Part shown: in pieces, positions 37,183 to 50,670 of the stretch
Numbering within the stretch: the first letter of the stretch is position 1
Layout of the letters: each line of letters opens with the position of its first letter
Assembly (NCBI GenBank): GCA_963765895.1
Contig: CAVXZB010000012.1
Coordinates: 1 to 64,000 of the forward strand
Direction: 5' to 3'
DNA length: 64,000 bases
Origin: an uncultured Nitrososphaeraceae archaeon
GTDB taxonomy: Archaea > Thermoproteota > Nitrososphaeria > Nitrososphaerales > Nitrososphaeraceae
Position numbers and translations under genes: made by a program
Notes under the pieces: generated by a model
Databases searched by the model: none
Seen by the model: the letters and a program-made list of their open reading frames with translations, nothing else
What the model was told of the DNA's origin: nothing

Positions 37183-37421
37183 ATGAAGAAATGAGCTGAT
37201 TTCTAAAGAGAACGAGAGATGAGCAAGAAAGAGATAGACTAAACCTAGCAATTGTAGCAGCAAACAATCATTATGCTGGGTTGTGTCCTGGAACTGCTAA
37301 CACATTTAGGAAAATGCTGGATTTGTCAGAAGTGACATGGAGTAATGTCGTGATTCCGAATACTGGGGAAACTGTATCTCGTAACACAAAACAAACTAGT
37401 CTATCGGATTTTTTGAAATGA
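37183..37421 (+). repeat. DUF72 3'-end copy A
   Basis: Aligns to 48137-48373 (AIVAANNHYAG..PGTANTFRKMLDLSEV...KQTSLSDFLK). Confidence 0.9.
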
Positions 37422-37524
37422 GATCTAGGTTCAGTTATCCCATACTTATCACATAACACTGAAGATTGTTTTAATTTATAGAATCTCTCAAGAGTTAAAT
37501 ATCCTAATAATTTGTTATTATTAC

Positions 37525-37935: not shown

Positions 37936-37989
37936 TTGTTGGCAGCAGAATATCCGAAGCATAAAACTAAACGCTAGATGCATAGTATG

Positions 37990-38780
37990 CTAATAAAATC
38001 TTAATTCTTCCATATTTAACTTGTCTTTAATATTCGTAAAATAATCTACAATTTTATCCCTGTTGTATTTCTGTAATTTTTCAAACCTGGATACGTCATC
38101 AAACGTCTCTTTATCATTTGATACATAATCAAGTCCTTGTTCCAGCACCATATCAAACATTTCTCGATTTGTTAACGCTTGATAAAGATATTGTTTATTT
38201 TTTATTTGAACAGCAGATGAATCTTTTCTGGCTACTGCAAGGGCAATTTCCACAGTGAAGGCAGCCAATTTAAACAGATCTAGAACGTTAAACCTTGCAT
38301 CCGATCCTTTTTCATTCTCGTAGGGACATTACAATATTTTTCTGACCTTGTCTGTTTTCTGGCATATAACTACCGAAATACTTCTTATTTAATTTCTTAG
38401 TTACTGGATCTTGCCAGTAAGCATAGTAGTAAGGACCATGCTGATCATGATGACAGTTGGCTTTTTTACATTTGACATATTCTTTTCTTATCGTTGCATT
38501 TCCAGGTATTGCCTTGAGTCTACCAGCACAAGCCAAATCTATTGCTTTAACTTTGTTTATGAACTTGGTTGACCTCTCAATTCTTTTCTTAGCATTTGCA
38601 AGTACTTTTTGTAACGAAGTTCGCTTATGTCCAAAAGGAGACTTACTCCAACCAGGCAGCTTCTCATGGTTGTTCTCTTTATAAAACCACGCTAGCTCAT
38701 TAAAGTGTGATGCAGGACTAGAAGAGTTGTCATTATGATTATTGTCGTTAGATAGATTATGATAGATTATGATATCTGCC
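37990..38780 (-). pseudogene. DUF6788-like protein, frameshifted
   Basis: TIRKEYVKCKKANC..HGPYYYAYW...KKYFG; frame open upstream of 38536; tail in the 37990-38268 frame. Confidence 0.6.
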
Positions 38781-38874
38781 TAAACGCCTTGTATTAGTCA
38801 ACTCTTACAATTATTTAGCATATCCTTATGAAGTTACCTTTACTATCATTATTCGTAATTTCTTCCTCAGTTAA

Positions 38875-39232
38875 TTATATTAGATCAACTAGGTATATTA
38901 CAAAATGAAATCTAGTCACATATAAACAAGCTAGCGTTAAATTGCAACGTCCTTTGAATATCTCCCATCGTTTCCTCCTGACCTCTTCTATTCCATCAAT
39001 GCACTGTTTGTAATAATACGCCAAATCAGACTTTGCTAGATCAAACACAAATCGTTGCGACAACTGTTTTAAAAACTTTGACTTCCCTACTGATAGTTGA
39101 TTGGTCTATCTTTAATTCAAGTGCTATTTCAGTTTCTGTCATTGACTGTGCTAGAGTTCCAACTTTTCTGCATCTATCTTCAATTTTGAAATTATGCGTT
39201 ACCAAGATTGTTATATGCATTGTTCTATTCAT
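38875..39232 (-). pseudogene. HTH protein of a multicopy mobile-element family (possible terminase small subunit)
   Basis: LAQSMTETEIALELKIDQSTISREVK, then SQRFVFDLAKSDLAYYYKQCIDGIEEV in another frame. Confidence 0.7.
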
Positions 39233-39558
39233 GAAAGTTATGTTTATGCATTTTGAGGTAGTGATAATTACTACAATATAATAATATTGGGGAATATCCT
39301 ATTATCACGTATTTTGAACTAATATATTCATATCGCTATCCGATAAACTTATGATATTATCTTTCTGCTCGTCTAAAGCAAAGTCACTTATCTGGACATT
39401 AGACTCCTTTTACATTTCCACTAATTTTTACTAATCTTTTGCCCATTTTCATCCAATTTGATAGATCGATGATGGATTCTACCAACTCCTCTCCCTTATT
39501 GGTTAATCTATATTCTACCCTTGGAGGGATTTCATTGTATGCTTACTTCTTTCGTAAG

Positions 39559-39789
39559 ATGAATAAATCTCTAGTTATTGCAACGGTTATTGCAACTGTT
39601 GCAGTAGGTATGATAGCGTCAGCAGCAGTAATTGGAGCCATTAGCCAAGTAGCCCATGCGGGGCCAGGAAGTTGTCCGAAGTGCTTCCACCATCATCATC
39701 ACCATCATCATCATCATCATCACCATCATCATCACCATCACGACGGACACCACGGCGGTCATGGCATTTGTCCGCCGAGGTGTGCCTGA
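39559..39789 (+). CDS. Secreted poly-histidine / Cys mini-protein
   Basis: MNKS plus hydrophobic signal ending AHA; mature GPGSCPKCF-H18-DGHHGGHGICPPRCA; mixed CAT/CAC codons; T-tract after the stop. Confidence 0.8.
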   Translation: MNKSLVIATVIATVAVGMIASAAVIGAISQVAHAGPGSCPKCFHHHHHHHHHHHHHHHHHHDGHHGGHGICPPRCA

Positions 39790-40019
39790 TAGGCAGACCT
39801 CCCACCTATTTTTTGAAATAACATCAAGTCAAACTGTCTAACCATTTTTTTATAACTTATTTTTGTATTTTGTTGTGAAGTCATGGATGGACGATTATTA
39901 TATTGATGAGTATGAAGTATATTAGATAAGAATCAGATAGGTAATCCTTAACTACCGCATTAACCAAGTCAATGCTCCAATTATGACATTACAAATCCGA
40001 ATCAGTTGTAAAGAAGAGT

Positions 40020-40675: not shown

Positions 40676-41413
40676 TCACAGCACATTCTTTGCAGACTTT
40701 TTCTCATAGTGATGTAATGCAAGTCTAAAAGCATCGAATATATCGTTGTAGGAAGTTGCCTCCTTGTCTAAAGTTCCTTCCCCTTTCTCCACTGCTGTTC
40801 TTAATGAAGTTATTAGTTTATCAAATTTAGGATTTATTGCAACCAAACCATGATTATCTTCTAAAAGCATTTTAGTATGTAGCAACATCTTTTTGTGCTC
40901 TTGAGCAAAATTAATTGGAATTATAAACATATCATTAGCAGTAGTCCAATCATGATCTGGGAAAGTGTGTTTGTATTCTGCTATTGCTTGATCATAATCT
41001 TCCCTTTCTCCTCGTTGTATCTTTAATGATTTTATGAAGGAAGGATTTGCTGCATCCACGTATATCTTGCTATTCTCTGGTGTAAAGTGAAAGTAATTGG
41101 TCAAATTCCATACGACATTTAACATCTGGTTAAAGTCTGGTCTTTCGAATTGATCTGCATATATTATTTGTATTTGGCCATCGACAAACTGAGTTGCAAC
41201 AACACCAAATGCAGAACTACCATAACCTGGATCTAGACCTAAGGACTTCCTAGCAGCGTATGTAGTATTCAGATTACTTTGATTTCGCATATCTTTTGCA
41301 GTATCATATTCTACACTATATTTTTGACCAAGTTCTATTGCTTTTTCAATATCTTTGGTATGGAATACGTTTCCTATCTTGCCTAAATATTTACTACAAA
41401 TATGAAAATGCAT
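40676..41413 (-). pseudogene. Terminase large subunit C-terminal RNase H-like nuclease domain (ATPase domain missing)
   Basis: GNVF, GLDPGYGSSAFGVV, IYVDAANPSFI, DIFDAFRLAL. Confidence 0.72.
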
Positions 41414-41623
41414 AGGATATGCTTATCATAGGAAAAATACTTATTTTGTAATGAGAATTCCACTGTAGATAACTGTGCTAAGTATTTTGTCAATATCATC
41501 TCATTTTCATTTATTCTCAATCGGTGAAAATATGGATAAAATAGTGATGAATTGGATAATCGTATCTATAATACTCCCGTTATCGTTATTGGATACTGCC
41601 AGCTATTAGAGGGATTAGTAGGT

Positions 41624-42255
41624 ATGGAAGCAAAAGCGAAGATTCTGTTTGTTTTGATTGTAGGCCTAACAATGATAACCTCATCTGTTTTCGCTACTGG
41701 ATTGTCAGTGCTAGCGAAAGAGAATGGAGGCGGTGGTGAAGGAGGAGGAGAAAGTTCTGGCTCTGATTCCGGTGGGGATAGTAGTAGCGGCGATAGTAGC
41801 GACTCAGATAACAGCGGCGGTGGTAGTAATGACAATTCTCCTCATGACGACAAGAACAAGGACAAGATGAGAGGCGATACACAACCAAAACAACAACAAG
41901 ATGATGGGCTTGTTCATATCCCTGAACAGGGTTGGGTAGATGGAAAATGGACTGGAGGCTCTGAGGAGATGTTTAACAAGGGCCCGAATGGTGATGGAAA
42001 AATTCCACCTGGATGTTCTCATGGAGGATGCAGTCCCCTGTCAATGATCAACTGCCACCAAAACAACCTCCAACACTAATACAAGAAATCAACATCATTC
42101 TAAACATACACAAAACCTCGCATTCAAGTCATAAGACAGGAATAAGCAGAACTTGCTATGATGCGCTAAAGGTAGCATGGATGGATAAAGTCTATCGTGG
42201 TCAGAACCAGCAAGTCTATCAATTTCTGAATAGCTGCCTAGGAGTCAAAAGTTAA
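41624..42255 (+). CDS. Secreted Gly/Ser/Asp-rich protein (-1 frameshift in the C run at about 42036)
   Basis: Signal peptide MEAKAKILF...VLA; GGGEGGGESSGSDSGG tract; second frame ends CYDALKVAW...FLNSCLG. Confidence 0.65.
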
Positions 42256-42258
42256 TGG

Positions 42259-42387
42259 CTGGAACTCCTAACACATTCAGGAAAATGTTGGATTTGTCAG
42301 AAGTGAAATGGAATGAGAGTGTTCAAGTCCCCACGGCTGAAGAACTGGTAACACAAAACAAACTATTCTATCAGATTGTTGGAATGA
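42259..42387 (+). repeat. DUF72 3'-end copy B (shortest)
   Basis: GGAACTCCTAACACATTCAGGAAAATGTTGGATTTGTCAGAAGTG...GGTAACACAAAACAAACTATTCTATCAGATT. Confidence 0.88.
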
Positions 42388-42891
42388 GACACAGGGCTCA
42401 AATATCGGGGTATATGACAACGCTGTTGATTCAATTTAGAATATGTTGTCAATTCAAGTGTCTCAATAACGGAATCATCTTCACCAACATAAATGTCATT
42501 ATCCATTACTTCTACAGTCATGATTTCTAATCTCTTTGGCTAAGGCTCGATTAAAGTCTTCTAGATGCGTCTTGCTGCCAGCATACGCTGAGTAGTAAGG
42601 TGTTGTTGCTCCAACTAGTGATGTCTCCATGTTGATTGTGCGTCCATTGTCAGCTACACATTGGGCTGCTCATTGTATACAAAAAATGCGGCTTTAGCGT
42701 TGACAGTAAACATGATAATTTTGGTATAATAAAGCTTTTTTTAACAATTATCTAACATGGCTTAGAAAATTATTAGTATATTAATTTATAGATTAAACTA
42801 GGATCTTATTATTAATCCTAATCACAATGTTTTTATCTCTCATTATTGTTGACGGATTTTAGGTATAGCAAAGCAGTATGCCTAATAGTGA

Positions 42892-44723: not shown

Positions 44724-46923
44724 TTGGATTCACTAACTAAACTTGACCCACGATATCTAGCAAAAAATAATCCGGTCATGTTTACGGTAGAAGCAGGATT
44801 TATAGTAGTCCTTACTATTGCATTGCTTCCAAGTAATATTTCAATAGAATTTGTAAATCAAGGTAAAGCGCTATATTTTCAGACTGCGATAATACTGATT
44901 TTAACCGTCTGGTTTGCAACATTTTCAGAATCATTATCCGAGGCCCAGGCTAGAGCAAGGGTGGATTCTCTTCGTAATCTGGAAAAAGAAGTATCTGCAC
45001 ACAAGATTGTAAATAATGAGAAGGAAGTTACTGTAACTTCAACTAGTCTTAATCCAGGAGACGAAGTAATGGTGTATGCAGGTGAAATAATACCTAGAGA
45101 TGGTCTTGTAAATGATGGTAAAGCATTTGTAGACGAATCAATGATGACAGGAGAATCAAATCCTGTGTTCAAGGAAGAAGGAGATCATGTAATAGGTGGA
45201 ACTAGAGTAGCAAGTGATAAGCTAATAGTAGAAATTACCTCTGAAGCTGGTAGAAGCTTTCTAGATCAGATGGTTAGTCTCATACAGAATGCAACCAGAC
45301 CAAAGACCAAAAATGAAATTGCCTTATCAATGTTACTAGCAGGATTATCTTTAATTTTTATAATGGTAGTTGGAACACTTTTATTCTTTACAGATTTTCT
45401 TGGATTAAAAGCAGATATTGCTACACAAGTGGCTCTACTAGTTGCACTTATGCCTACTACAATTGGTGCGCTACTTCCAGCCATAGGCGTTGCTGGCATA
45501 ACCAGACTAGGAAGGGACAGCATCATCGCAAAATCTGGTAAAGGAATTGAAGCTGCTGGAGATTGCGATGTTTTGATATTAGATAAAACAGGAACAATTA
45601 CTGAAGGTAGTAGAAGTGCTGTAGAATTCATACCTATGAACGAATATACTGAAAAAGATATAGGACAAGCAGCTTTCGCAGCGTCTATCCATGATACAAC
45701 ACATGAAGGCAAATCAATAGTGGATCTTGCAGAAGAGAAAAAGTTTGTTCTGCCTCTTTTAGAAAAAATAATTCCAGCTAGATCCATTCAATTCACTGCT
45801 GAAACCAGATGCAGTGGTATTGAATTTATTGCAAATAAGGATGTTATACTAAATAAGGAGCAAGAAGATGAATTCCGATCATTAGCAAGAGATATCATTG
45901 GTAGTAATAGTAGTAAGGCTACAAGCAGCAGTGACGGGGATAAAAAGGTAGTTAATCCAACAATAAAAGATATTGAAAGAGATGTAGAACGTGCTAGTAA
46001 AAGTAGAGTCCATGATCTACTAATAAAATTAGAGCAGACAAAAGGTGAAGTAAGAATTCTTAAAGGCGCAGTAGATATGATAATCGACTTTACAGGACCG
46101 AATGTAAATCAAGCAGAAATAAAATGGAAAGCACAGGAAATTTCTAAGGTTGGTGGAACACCATTGGCAGTATCTATAAATAATGAAGTAATCGGACTTG
46201 TAGCTCTAAAAGATAATCTAAAAGAAAACATTAGAGAGAGACTAAACGAGGTCCGTTCTACTGGGATAACCACAGTGATGATTACCGGAGACAACCAATT
46301 GACGGCTCAAGTCATTGCCAGAGAAGCTGACGTTGATGAAGTAATAGCTGAAGCAAAACCTGCAGACAAACTAACCAGAGTTGAACAAGAGCAACTAAAA
46401 GGACATGTAATAGGTATGGTAGGGGATGGGACTAATGATGCCCCAGCACTTGCTAAAGCTGATGTAGGATTAGCGATGAACAGTGGAACTGCAACCAGCT
46501 AAAGAAGCTGCAAATATGGTGGATTTGGACTCTGACCCTTCTAATATAATGAAAGTTGTAAAACTTGGCAAACAGCTGCTTATGACACGTGGTGCCATTA
46601 CCACATTTAGCATTGCTAATGATGCCGCCAAATACTTTGCAATTCTTCCAGCAATGTTTGTAGGAACTACTCCCAAATTACAAATGCTAAATATAATGCA
46701 TCTTCACAGTCCTGAGACGGCCATATTATCTACATTAATATTTAATGCTATAATAATACCCGCCCTAATTCCTATCTCATTGAGAGGAGTCAAGTTCAAG
46801 CCAGAGCCGCCGCAAAAGACATTTATAAGAAATATGTTAATTTATGGTTTAGGTGGGGCTGCGTTACCATTTATAGGTATAAAGGCAATTGATACGCTAT
46901 TATCTGCTTTCATTGGTAGGTAA
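44724..46923 (+). CDS. kdpB: Potassium-transporting ATPase subunit B (P-type); +1 frameshift at about 46495, start uncertain
   Basis: [34 protein letters not shown], then [14 protein letters not shown]...[13 protein letters not shown]. Confidence 0.95.
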
Positions 46924-47829: not shown

Positions 47830-48373
47830 TCGCTTTATTGATACAGTTACCACCTTCGATGGGTATAGTTGAAGGCATGGATGGTCTGAGAGTATTATCA
47901 TACCTGAATTAGATAGAAGATTCAAATATGCTGTAGAAGTTAGAGATAGTTTGTGGTTTCAGGATTTGGCATATAGTTTTTTTGCAAATAACAATATGTG
48001 CATGGTCTGGAGTCAACTCTCAGATATAAGAACTCCTCCAATAGTTACATCAAATTTTATCTACATAAGATTCATTGGCGATAGGACTATACAAGAAAAG
48101 GATTTTGGTAAGATACAAAAAGACAGAGCTTTAGAAATGAAAAAGTGGTCTAGATTTGTAAAAAAAGCCAAAGAAGAGCAGCGGGACAGATTAAACCTAG
48201 CGATTGTAGCAGCAAACAATCATTATGCTGGATTCGGTCCAGGAACTGTTAACACATTCAGGAAAATGTTGGATTTATCAGAAGTGGCATGGGAGAATGT
48301 TGAGATTCCTGATACCGAAATGAGAACATCTGGTAACACAAAACAAACTAGTCTATCAGATTTTTTGAAATGA
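47830..48373 (+). pseudogene. DUF72-family gene, 5'-truncated (longest copy, C)
   Basis: LLIQLPPS, YAVEVR, FIYIRFIG, NNHYAGFGPGT; ends KQTSLSDFLK. Confidence 0.88.
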
Positions 48374-48648
48374 GTCAGGATCATGGATCATAGCATGTCA
48401 AGGAGATAGTGCTATAACTAGATTTATTAAGATACGAAGCTTTCTATCCTACTAATCAGACCTCAGACCTAGTTGGTATTTTTGCTTCGGCTTCCTTATG
48501 GCATTCGTATGTCGGTCCTACTTGCAGTGGTTGAAATGACATTGGGGAGGCATGTGCGTAAAAGCAACCATATTACGACTAAATCCTATTTGAACAGTAA
48601 CTGCCTAATTCTACTAACAAATCATGTCAAGTCATTAGACCTGTCTTA

Positions 48649-50159: not shown

Positions 50160-50416
50160 GATTTTAGAGATGAAAAAATGGACTAGATTTCTAAAGAGAG
50201 CCAGAGATGATGAAGAACAAAGAGATAGACTAAACCTAGCAATTGTAGCAGTTAATAATCATTATGCTGGATTGGACTGGAACTGCTAGCACATTCAGAA
50301 AAATGTTGGATTTATCAGAAGTGACATGGAATGAGGATGTTCAAGTCCCCAAGATAGAAGGAGCATCTGGTAATACAAAACAAAAATAAACTAGTCTATC
50401 AGATTTTTTGAATTGA
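50160..50416 (+). repeat. DUF72 3'-end copy D
   Basis: TTAGAGATGAAAAAATGGACTAGATTT...AATAATCATTATGCTGG...CTAGTCTATCAGATTTTTTG; shares downstream TGAGATCTA.GTTCA with copy A. Confidence 0.9.
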
Positions 50417-50670
50417 GATCTATGTTCAACTAAATTGCGTTCAGATGCTCTATACCTTCAGATTATGAGACTATCATTCCGTTATGAAATCTTTGTTTAC
50501 ATCAGTGTCGTCCGAGTTATTGTATGCATGCACCGGCTAGGGACAACTGATGTCAAAGGCTCCGCATACATCGACCTATTATTGCAAGGACTTTGCTATT
50601 ATTCCAACTAAGAATAACTCGTAACAATATTTCTAAATACAGATATCCAAATAACCGAGAGATACATGAC

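Follow-up and report, generated by a model that had tools for sequence, protein, structure and literature searches.

An intact ORF of 76 codons was found on the forward strand of the analysed window, which is a 64,000 nt stretch (contig C12:1–64000, approximately 34 % G+C) of genome G000, an assembly of 4.9 Mb in 88 contigs that is 88 % complete. The ORF opens with ATG at 39559 and closes with TGA at 39787–39789. The first 34 residues of the pre-peptide are MNKSLVIATVIATVAVGMIASAAVIGAISQVAHA, and residues 35–76 consist of GPGSCPKCF, 18 successive His residues and DGHHGGHGICPPRCA, a stretch of 42 residues of which 21 are His and 4 are Cys. This agrees with an initial sequence-only reading of the window, which had described the ORF, a leader ending in AHA and the same arrangement of Cys and His, and which had also noted that CAT and CAC codons are interleaved. 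The codon order in the tract is CAC, (CAT)3, CAC, (CAT)6, CAC, (CAT)3, CAC, CAT, CAC, and TRF described it as a period-3 repeat of 16.7 copies with 87 % matches. The features in and around the gene, and similar ORFs elsewhere in the genome, are collected in Table 1.

Table 1. Features of the peptide gene and its surroundings (window coordinates) and other ORFs with a leader and polyHis in G000 (contig coordinates)
Feature	Position	Strand	Evidence
CDS of 76-aa pre-peptide, stop included	39559..39789	+	ORF, homologues, dN/dS
Predicted Sec-type signal peptide	39559..39660	+	K3, long hydrophobic core, AHA at −3..−1
12-nt tandem duplication (VIAT VIAT) in hydrophobic core	39574..39600	+	TRF: period 12, 2.2 copies, 93 % matches
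N-terminal Cys pair CPKC	39673..39684	+	Within GPG(S/N/A)CPKCFHH, alignments
18-codon His tract, 13 CAT + 5 CAC (assembly length)	39688..39741	+	Sequence, TRF
DGHHGGHGI, rest of 27-residue linker	39742..39768	+	Family linker comparison
C-terminal Cys pair CPPRC (CxxxC)	39769..39783	+	Cx3–4C in 8/8 members measured
T6 run, 20 nt past stop; possible archaeal oligo-T terminator	39809..39814	+	Sequence
3′ half of HxlR-family regulator gene, 8 nt from peptide ATG	39444..39551	−	PF01638
TerL C-terminal fragment, 245-aa ORF	40676..41413	−	tblastn, Pro-Nvie1 TerL aa 269–444 of 456
Multi-copy element pieces, small ORFs including HTH ORF	37960..39260		Repeated on at least 8 other contigs
Left DUF72-3′-end-derived repeat	37183..37423		Repeat comparison with DUF72 loci
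Right DUF72-3′-end-derived repeat	42259..42389		Repeat comparison with DUF72 loci
Leader plus polyHis ORFs, contig C23	C23:76750–76995, C23:245481–245726, C23:166863–167030		
Leader plus polyHis ORFs, other contigs	C24:208653–208883, C78:25959–26174, C87:105130–105393, C88:166873–167211		

The leader has the features of a signal peptidase I substrate, with Lys at position 3, hydrophobic residues at 5–29 and A-H-A at 32–34, and a small-x-small motif (AYA, VHA or ANA) occupies the equivalent site in all homologues. The hydrophobic core of approximately 25 residues is long for a cleaved signal peptide and is of membrane-anchor length, and the leader could alternatively serve as an uncleaved membrane anchor. 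An AF2 model based on a five-sequence alignment (mean pLDDT 56) placed a helix over residues 3–33 as its sole confident part; residues 31–76 had pLDDT values below 50, the mature part being modelled as disordered and the geometry of the Cys clamp uninformative.

Other readings of the same DNA were rejected. A 116-aa extended ORF can be opened from TTG at 39439, but its upstream part is the antisense of HxlR codons and its relatives have stops 1–3 codons before their ATG. ORFs on the other strand of the tract, in poly-Met/Val and Asp/Gly frames, were likewise set aside, the conserved leader and Cys motifs being found only in the His frame. A scan for sigma-70 promoters and hairpin terminators, which is ill-suited to archaea, gave results no better than shuffled sequences and no bacterial-type hairpin. 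T-rich runs were also seen downstream of the copies of the gene in the sister genome G001.

Genomic setting of the peptide gene

The HxlR-family fragment beside the peptide gene matched PF01638 with an E-value of 5.2e-7 (31.6 bits) over model positions 50–85 of 91, the gene being cut at model position 50. In at least five other genomic copies, and in G006, the HxlR gene continues past the position corresponding to 39545, where the peptide gene starts here. A short-read contig, which may share its sample with the assembly, spans the junction between the two genes with 0 differences. By comparison with these copies, the peptide gene sits here as a cassette attached to a truncated HxlR gene. Because it abuts this fragment, the TATA-like upstream region of the three G001 copies is missing here, and because the upstream region common to its relatives has been lost, the window copy may be poorly expressed. 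A TATA-like TTAATCTATATT is located 45–56 nt upstream of the window ATG; its conservation had made it a candidate for a shared promoter, which was rejected since it corresponds to conserved HxlR codons read in antisense. The HxlR-family profile gave 16 matches in G000, the window fragment and 15 others, several of which are fragments or contain stops.

The sequence-only reading had placed the gene inside a proviral remnant between DUF72 repeats, and most of this setting was recovered. The TerL fragment matched the terminase of the Nitrososphaera provirus Pro-Nvie1 in tblastn (E-values 2e-6 and 6e-11) and lies in a degraded mobile patch; no gene of Pro-Nvie1 other than the terminase matches the window. 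The gene did not hold up as a regular cargo of the element: it is absent from the other copies of the provirus-like element. The flanking repeats were named correctly in substance, being copies of DUF72 3′ ends, although the DUF72 profile gives no match to them at E≤0.01. There are at least 20 genomic copies of this repeat, coinciding with the 3′ ends of DUF72 loci, and the profile itself has 31 matches in the genome, many partial or with stops. The scattered DUF72 ends could mean that DUF72 genes have been integration targets several times, or that an element carrying DUF72 is mobile. Further copies of DUF72 ends occur in the window at 48137–48374 and 50170–50428. The multi-copy element at 37960–39260 comprises three small minus-strand ORFs (one of 92 aa, one zinc-ribbon-like and one HTH), and its pieces on contigs C41 and C84 adjoin TerL fragments.

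The surroundings also hold an SDR fragment and orphan ORFs, and synteny with five sister loci upstream of kdpA (42892) ends at 42818–42884, which places the gene in a variable region. Among the functional genes, kdpA and kdpB are the closest, and the window locus has no metal-related neighbour. The G001 and G002 copies are located among ordinary housekeeping genes, and no neighbour is common to the family copies. A 175-aa ORF on the forward strand (41552–42079) has a leader-like segment in its interior, a long low-complexity stretch rich in Gly, Ser and Asp and an end rich in Cys, with no family match in Pfam or NCBIfam.

Gene family, selection and tract length

To judge from the homologue searches, the peptide gene belongs to a real but tiny family of approximately 10 sequences, all from soil Nitrososphaeraceae. 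A six-frame search of 40 relatives recovered full-length homologues in the same genus only. G001 has two intact copies (L028 1472–1699 and L029 9998–10225), 57–63 % identical to the window peptide, and a third copy (L023, C79) with a TAA within the leader. The copy in G002 (L030) is degenerate, with neither ATG nor Cys, and no family copy was found in G003–G006 with the window peptide as query. Among 1.84 billion representative proteins, a profile search found four matches at E≤0.001, three of which are relatives (P0001, P0002 and P0003, the last apparently frame-shifted), and a cluster look-up added P0005; in their source, P0001 and P0005 are both labelled hypothetical protein and assigned to a Nitrososphaera sp. 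MAG. The single match in a search for longer proteins, P0006, was ruled out as a fusion protein, being a gene call extended through the stop codons that surround one further family member. When 185,579 species genomes were scanned with a back-translation of CPKCFHH, 118 stretches were obtained, of which 115 were chance matches and 3 were family members, all assigned to Nitrososphaeraceae archaeon.

The exact window protein is absent from a collection of 15 billion proteins. Word-indexed protein searches gave 68 candidates for the window peptide, none at E≤0.01, and no candidate for a plain polyHis peptide, and a search for related loci gave 603 pattern matches in genome contigs and 582 in metagenome contigs, none of which was confirmed. 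The window peptide matched 0 Pfam families at E≤0.01 and 0 PHROG families and had no usable match in the ESM Atlas, and its best scores against NCBIfam (E 0.26) and PDB sequences (E 0.68) were not significant.

Comparison of the two intact G001 paralogues (C102 and C13) gave a dN of 0.105 and a dS of 0.356 (dN/dS 0.29), and comparison of the window copy with G001 gave a saturated pS of approximately 0.75 and a pN of approximately 0.25. These values indicate that the reading frame is under purifying selection. The His frame had been taken as the coding frame from the outset, and the homologues in the sister genome and among metagenome proteins share this frame together with the leader and the Cys motifs.

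The features invariant in intact members are the leader, the block GPG(S/N/A)CPKCFHH and the C-terminal Cx3–4C. The linker from CPKCF to the next Cys, compared in seven intact members and the G001 pseudogene, measures 25–28 residues in all eight and 27 in the window. His makes up 56–78 % of the linker in six of the seven intact members, with 78 % in the window and 56–58 % in five relatives that have mixed H/F/K/P linkers, and 48 % in the G001 pseudogene. In the remaining intact member, P0002, the linker HHGQFPTQSNDPRNSESETSDSSHGG is Ser/Asp/Glu-rich and has 3 His in 26 residues (12 %). A homologue lacking the His tract had been named beforehand as counting against the sequence-only reading, and P0002 is such a homologue; the other six of the seven intact members are His-rich. 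Since the length is fixed and the composition of the linker variable, constraint falls on the Cys clamp and the loop length, and since P0002 keeps the clamp with 3 His, His-richness is usual but not essential to the scaffold. The near-homopolymer in the window seems to be derived, by homogenisation with the length kept constant and not by expansion.

Some leaders of similar type were seen on other ORFs. In G001, three small ORFs with an MNKS-type leader were noted (C159:10078–10547 and C90:10057–10176; L025, L027), two of them in tandem; their mature parts are Gly/Asn/Lys-rich and unrelated, and two of the three end in Cys pairs. In G000, C64:62568–62744 (L050 4990–5177, minus strand) has a window-type leader with an in-frame TGA in it, followed by HFKSDHHRHHHHHNNGHHGAGGDCGVCGG, and this copy may be a pseudogene or carry a stop produced by assembly error.

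A check of the length of the His tract against reads had been proposed. The sequencing runs found to carry the stretch included none of RNA. In all four runs examined the short-read contigs end at 39681 and restart at 39747 or 39765, none bridging the tract. They show 0 differences from the window flanks at 39370–39681 and 39747–39931, and the tract itself (39682–39746) lies outside the contigs of the four runs. Because the short-read contigs break at the tract, the length of 18 His is that given by the assembly only. One base at 39931 is missing from all three short-read contigs that cover it, the amoA profile match in G000 is split over three reading frames (C24:168102–168652) and kdpB is contained in two overlapping ORFs (window 44724–46923). 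These points suggest either assembly indel errors or real gene decay, and in view of the possible indel errors the pseudogene calls within G000 are provisional and the tract length is unconfirmed.

It was considered whether the window copy is a silent, decaying relic, i.e. a promoterless cassette in a junk region whose 18 His reflect neutral microsatellite homogenisation, in a family that is functional now or was formerly. Several of the above observations would fit this: the ATG lies 8 nt from a truncated gene on the opposite strand and the G001-type upstream region is missing; the surroundings are made up of fragments (TerL, SDR), DUF72-derived repeats and orphan ORFs; the family has decayed elsewhere (the TAA in G001 C79, the loss of ATG and Cys in G002, the apparently frame-shifted P0003, the TGA on C64); the linker is a near-pure CAY repeat here versus mixed H/F/K/P in relatives; and the exact protein is absent from the 15-billion-protein collection. 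All 76 codons are nevertheless intact, a slippage-prone tract has stayed in frame with the C-terminal CxxxC read in the same frame behind it, the linker of 27 residues falls within the family range of 25–28, a T-run follows the stop codon and a TATA-like TTAATCTATATT is present at 45–56 nt upstream, though as the antisense of HxlR codons. We regard a relic as unlikely, while giving it real weight.

Other exported-type His-rich peptides in the genome and genus

To survey His-rich segments, all six frames of G000, the only genome scanned whole, were searched for stretches between stops of 25 residues or more in which any 12 residues contain at least 6 His. This gave 77 His-rich segments, 11 of which have at least 10 His in 12. 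Eight of these 11 densest segments, the window gene and seven others, are preceded by a hydrophobic leader ending in AxA, and the remaining three lie on the strand opposite a poly-Asp stretch in a longer ORF. As these three are antisense to poly-Asp, all eight true long His tracts of G000 are in small leader ORFs. The three antisense CAY tracts are at C25:22138–22266, C59:34174–34302 and C26:7917–8024, where GDDDDGDDDD occurs in a longer ORF each time, and a fourth, in G007 (C1:2205798–2205914), lies opposite approximately 40 Asp in a protein.

The seven other ORFs with a leader and polyHis have His runs of 9, 27, 28, 30 and 30 or consist of HHK repeats. They have relatives in all six sister genomes, and none was found in the large protein database. 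A further six leader ORFs have shorter His-rich starts (C78:5617, C73, two on C84, C87:96795 and C64), and HHK- and HHHN-repeat forms are found among the exported-type His-rich tails. On these predictions, the window gene is one of about a dozen genes for exported His-rich peptides in G000, a wider pattern that the sequence-only reading had missed. The predicted mature N-termini of the 13 other peptides were X-X-His in five (GGH, DGH, SNH, YKH and GHH) and His-first in six, as read by eye from the sequences, the automatic choice of cleavage site differing for some.

Sliding matches to (CAY)10 numbered 106 in G000 and 73, 108, 78 and 24 in four of the six sister genomes; G003, which is 75 % complete, had 0 and G005 had 2, with an odd control. 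The reversed control gave 0–1, and most other genera gave 0. This tally includes an unpublished genome, G092, which entered into this count only. The largest count outside the genus, 34 in G007, is mostly antisense to a poly-Asp run. A plain polyHis peptide used as query matched all six sister genomes and, weakly, 4 of 74 genomes of other genera, and ORFs with a leader and polyHis were also found in two genomes of another genus (G079 and G059). Judged by these counts, the combination of leader and polyHis is concentrated in this genus. It is also evident from the analysis that such genes largely escape standard gene calling and protein databases; for this reason, similar peptide sets may be overlooked in other organisms.

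Candidate functions and comparison with known systems

Ammonia-oxidising archaea depend on copper enzymes. The host had been taken for an ammonia oxidiser, and this is upheld by a match to the archaeal amoA family in G000, two matches to urease alpha and relatives within the Nitrososphaeraceae. We tentatively favour the reading that the gene encodes a small exported peptide that binds Cu, Ni or Zn, with a probability that we place a little short of even. The favoured reading is based on the composition of the peptide, its leader and Cys motifs, the genus-wide selection for imidazole-rich tails and the Cu and Ni needs of the host. The pre-peptide would pass the Sec translocon via its N-terminal 34 residues, signal peptidase would cut after AHA and the 42-residue peptide would be freed between the membrane and the S-layer or into the surroundings; if the leader stayed uncut, the peptide would be tethered to the membrane, facing outwards. 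The borderline ions Cu2+, Ni2+ and Zn2+ would be chelated by the linker, which has 21 imidazoles in 27 residues, and the CPKC and CPPRC motifs could either form disulfides that staple the ends into a loop of fixed length or bind Cu(I) through thiolates. The net role would be metal capture or buffering at the place where the copper enzymes for ammonia oxidation receive their metal. We infer export, the cleavage site, the disulfides, metal binding, the identity of the metal and the physiological role of the peptide. Against the favoured reading, the family is rare and patchy, with one intact copy here, two intact copies and one nonsense copy in G001 and a degenerate copy in G002; the loss of the upstream region, the long hydrophobic core, the lack of metal-related neighbours at this locus and the His-poor P0002 count against it as well.

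Several known metal-binding or His-rich systems were compared with the peptide. Hpn and Hpn-2 of Helicobacter pylori are small His-rich Ni-binding proteins, cytoplasmic and without a signal peptide. The window peptide resembles Hpn in being approximately half His, with homopolymeric His runs, a few Cys pairs and a presumed multi-site binding of Ni, Cu and Zn, but it is archaeal, has an N-terminal hydrophobic leader and a terminal clamp of CxxC and CxxxC, and has no detectable sequence relation to Hpn in Pfam, NCBIfam or PDB sequences. Histatins are His-rich peptides of human saliva that have a Cu/Ni site of the X-X-His type at the N-terminus and no Cys clamp. These short, disordered peptides are secreted, bind Cu and Zn and are cationic at low pH, all of which may also hold for the window peptide, but there is no homology, and the window peptide has a Cys clamp and, because its predicted mature N-terminus is G-P-G, lacks an X-X-His (ATCUN) site.

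The copper chaperones Atx1/CopZ (MxCxxC) and Sco1/SenC (CxxxC and His) are folded ferredoxin-like or thioredoxin-like domains. They have the same short Cys motifs and His, through which they take up Cu(I) or Cu(II) for delivery to enzymes outside the cytoplasm, but the window peptide has 42 residues, is modelled as disordered and has no Pfam match. Compared with Sco1/SenC specifically, CxxxC is present, no thioredoxin-like Pfam domain was found and pLDDT is below 50 for residues 31–76. A helical hairpin of the CX3C-Xn-CX3C type does not fit, the first motif being CX2C in all members and the low-confidence AF2 model having no helix in the mature part. For the HxxHxH domain of polyhistidine-triad (Pht) proteins, there was no Pfam match at E≤0.01.

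Methanobactins are ribosomal peptides that are modified by MbnB and MbnC and bind Cu via oxazolone and thioamide groups. The likeness is to a small secreted-type peptide proposed to supply Cu to a copper membrane monooxygenase related to AMO; the difference is that the window peptide has a Sec-type leader and no maturase nearby. The MbnB family PF05114 had 0 matches in G000 (88 % complete), and none was found among the neighbours of four family loci. Methanobactins are named as methanotroph copper-scavenging peptides in the available part of PMC13003922. No dedicated copper-capture molecule for ammonia-oxidising archaea is described in the available parts of PMC7785015 and PMC13003922, and literature searches of main texts combining His-rich or polyhistidine with ammonia-oxidising archaea, copper and signal peptides returned no such peptides. 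The Cu-limitation motif TTCSGSMTTTGWACYANT, as given in the available part of PMC7785015, was looked for in the 200 nt preceding each of 12 His-rich peptide genes and found at one gene, as two sites with four mismatches each. Genome-wide it had 0 exact matches and 1 match with one mismatch, and because of this near absence the motif is unusable in this genus and the upstream test uninformative.

A wider form of the metal-binding reading is that the genus exports a battery of unmodified polyHis peptides, with runs of up to 30 His, that captures copper and perhaps nickel as a counterpart of methanobactin, the Cys-clamped peptide being its redox-capable member that takes Cu(II) to Cu(I). Many of the peptides would then have X-X-His or His-1 N-termini after cleavage, and the clamped member would take on Cu(II) at its His loop and hand on Cu(I) from its thiols. 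In this full form we think the proposal improbable. If true, exported unmodified polyHis peptides would be simple candidate copper-capture molecules for ammonia-oxidising archaea, and because such peptides can be synthesised as encoded they are directly testable. If they are antimicrobial or structural instead, they would nevertheless add a hitherto undescribed component to the secretome of an abundant group of soil nitrifiers.

An antimicrobial or signalling role was considered in the form of a Sec-exported, Cys-stabilised hairpin for competition, similar to histatins or Sec-dependent bacteriocins, with a variable loop that would carry positive charge at low pH if rich in His. The conservation of leader and Cys frame around a fast-changing loop (12 % to 78 % His), the multiple copies, pseudogenes and patchy distribution, the location of the gene in variable DNA and the three G001 peptides that combine a similar leader with unrelated Gly/Asn-rich mature parts, two in tandem, are all consistent with such a role. 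We nonetheless judge it distinctly unlikely: no immunity, transporter or maturase gene is common to the copies, the Pfam, PHROG and NCBIfam scans were empty and the His tails on a dozen unrelated leaders in the genus would be left unexplained. Another role considered, in place of metal handling, is that of an envelope or matrix component. Imidazole has a pKa near 6, and the peptide would act as a polycation switched by pH, or as a buffer for protons, in the biofilm matrix or beneath the S-layer, where acid is released by ammonia oxidation. In favour of this, the genus-wide exported His-rich tails with HHK- and HHHN-repeat forms suggest a need for bulk imidazole over a specific site, and a secreted-type Gly/Ser/Asp-rich low-complexity protein is encoded 1.8 kb away (41552–42079). 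The role nevertheless seems very unlikely, as the invariant Cys pairs, the fixed linker length and the non-His member P0002 would remain unexplained.

For the favoured reading of an exported metal-binding peptide, the neighbours of the other polyHis genes provide only a hint. Metal-related genes were found within 5 kb of 4 of the 13 polyHis loci, a number with no control for comparison, and comprised a P-type ATPase with an ArsR-family gene, a DtxR-type repressor, a cation-efflux protein and multicopper oxidase fragments. At the first of these, the leader peptide at C87:96795–97184 (L053 5001–5390), which starts HKNHYHYGHHNHHH, is located approximately 400 bp from the 719-aa P-type ATPase, with the ArsR-family gene beside it.
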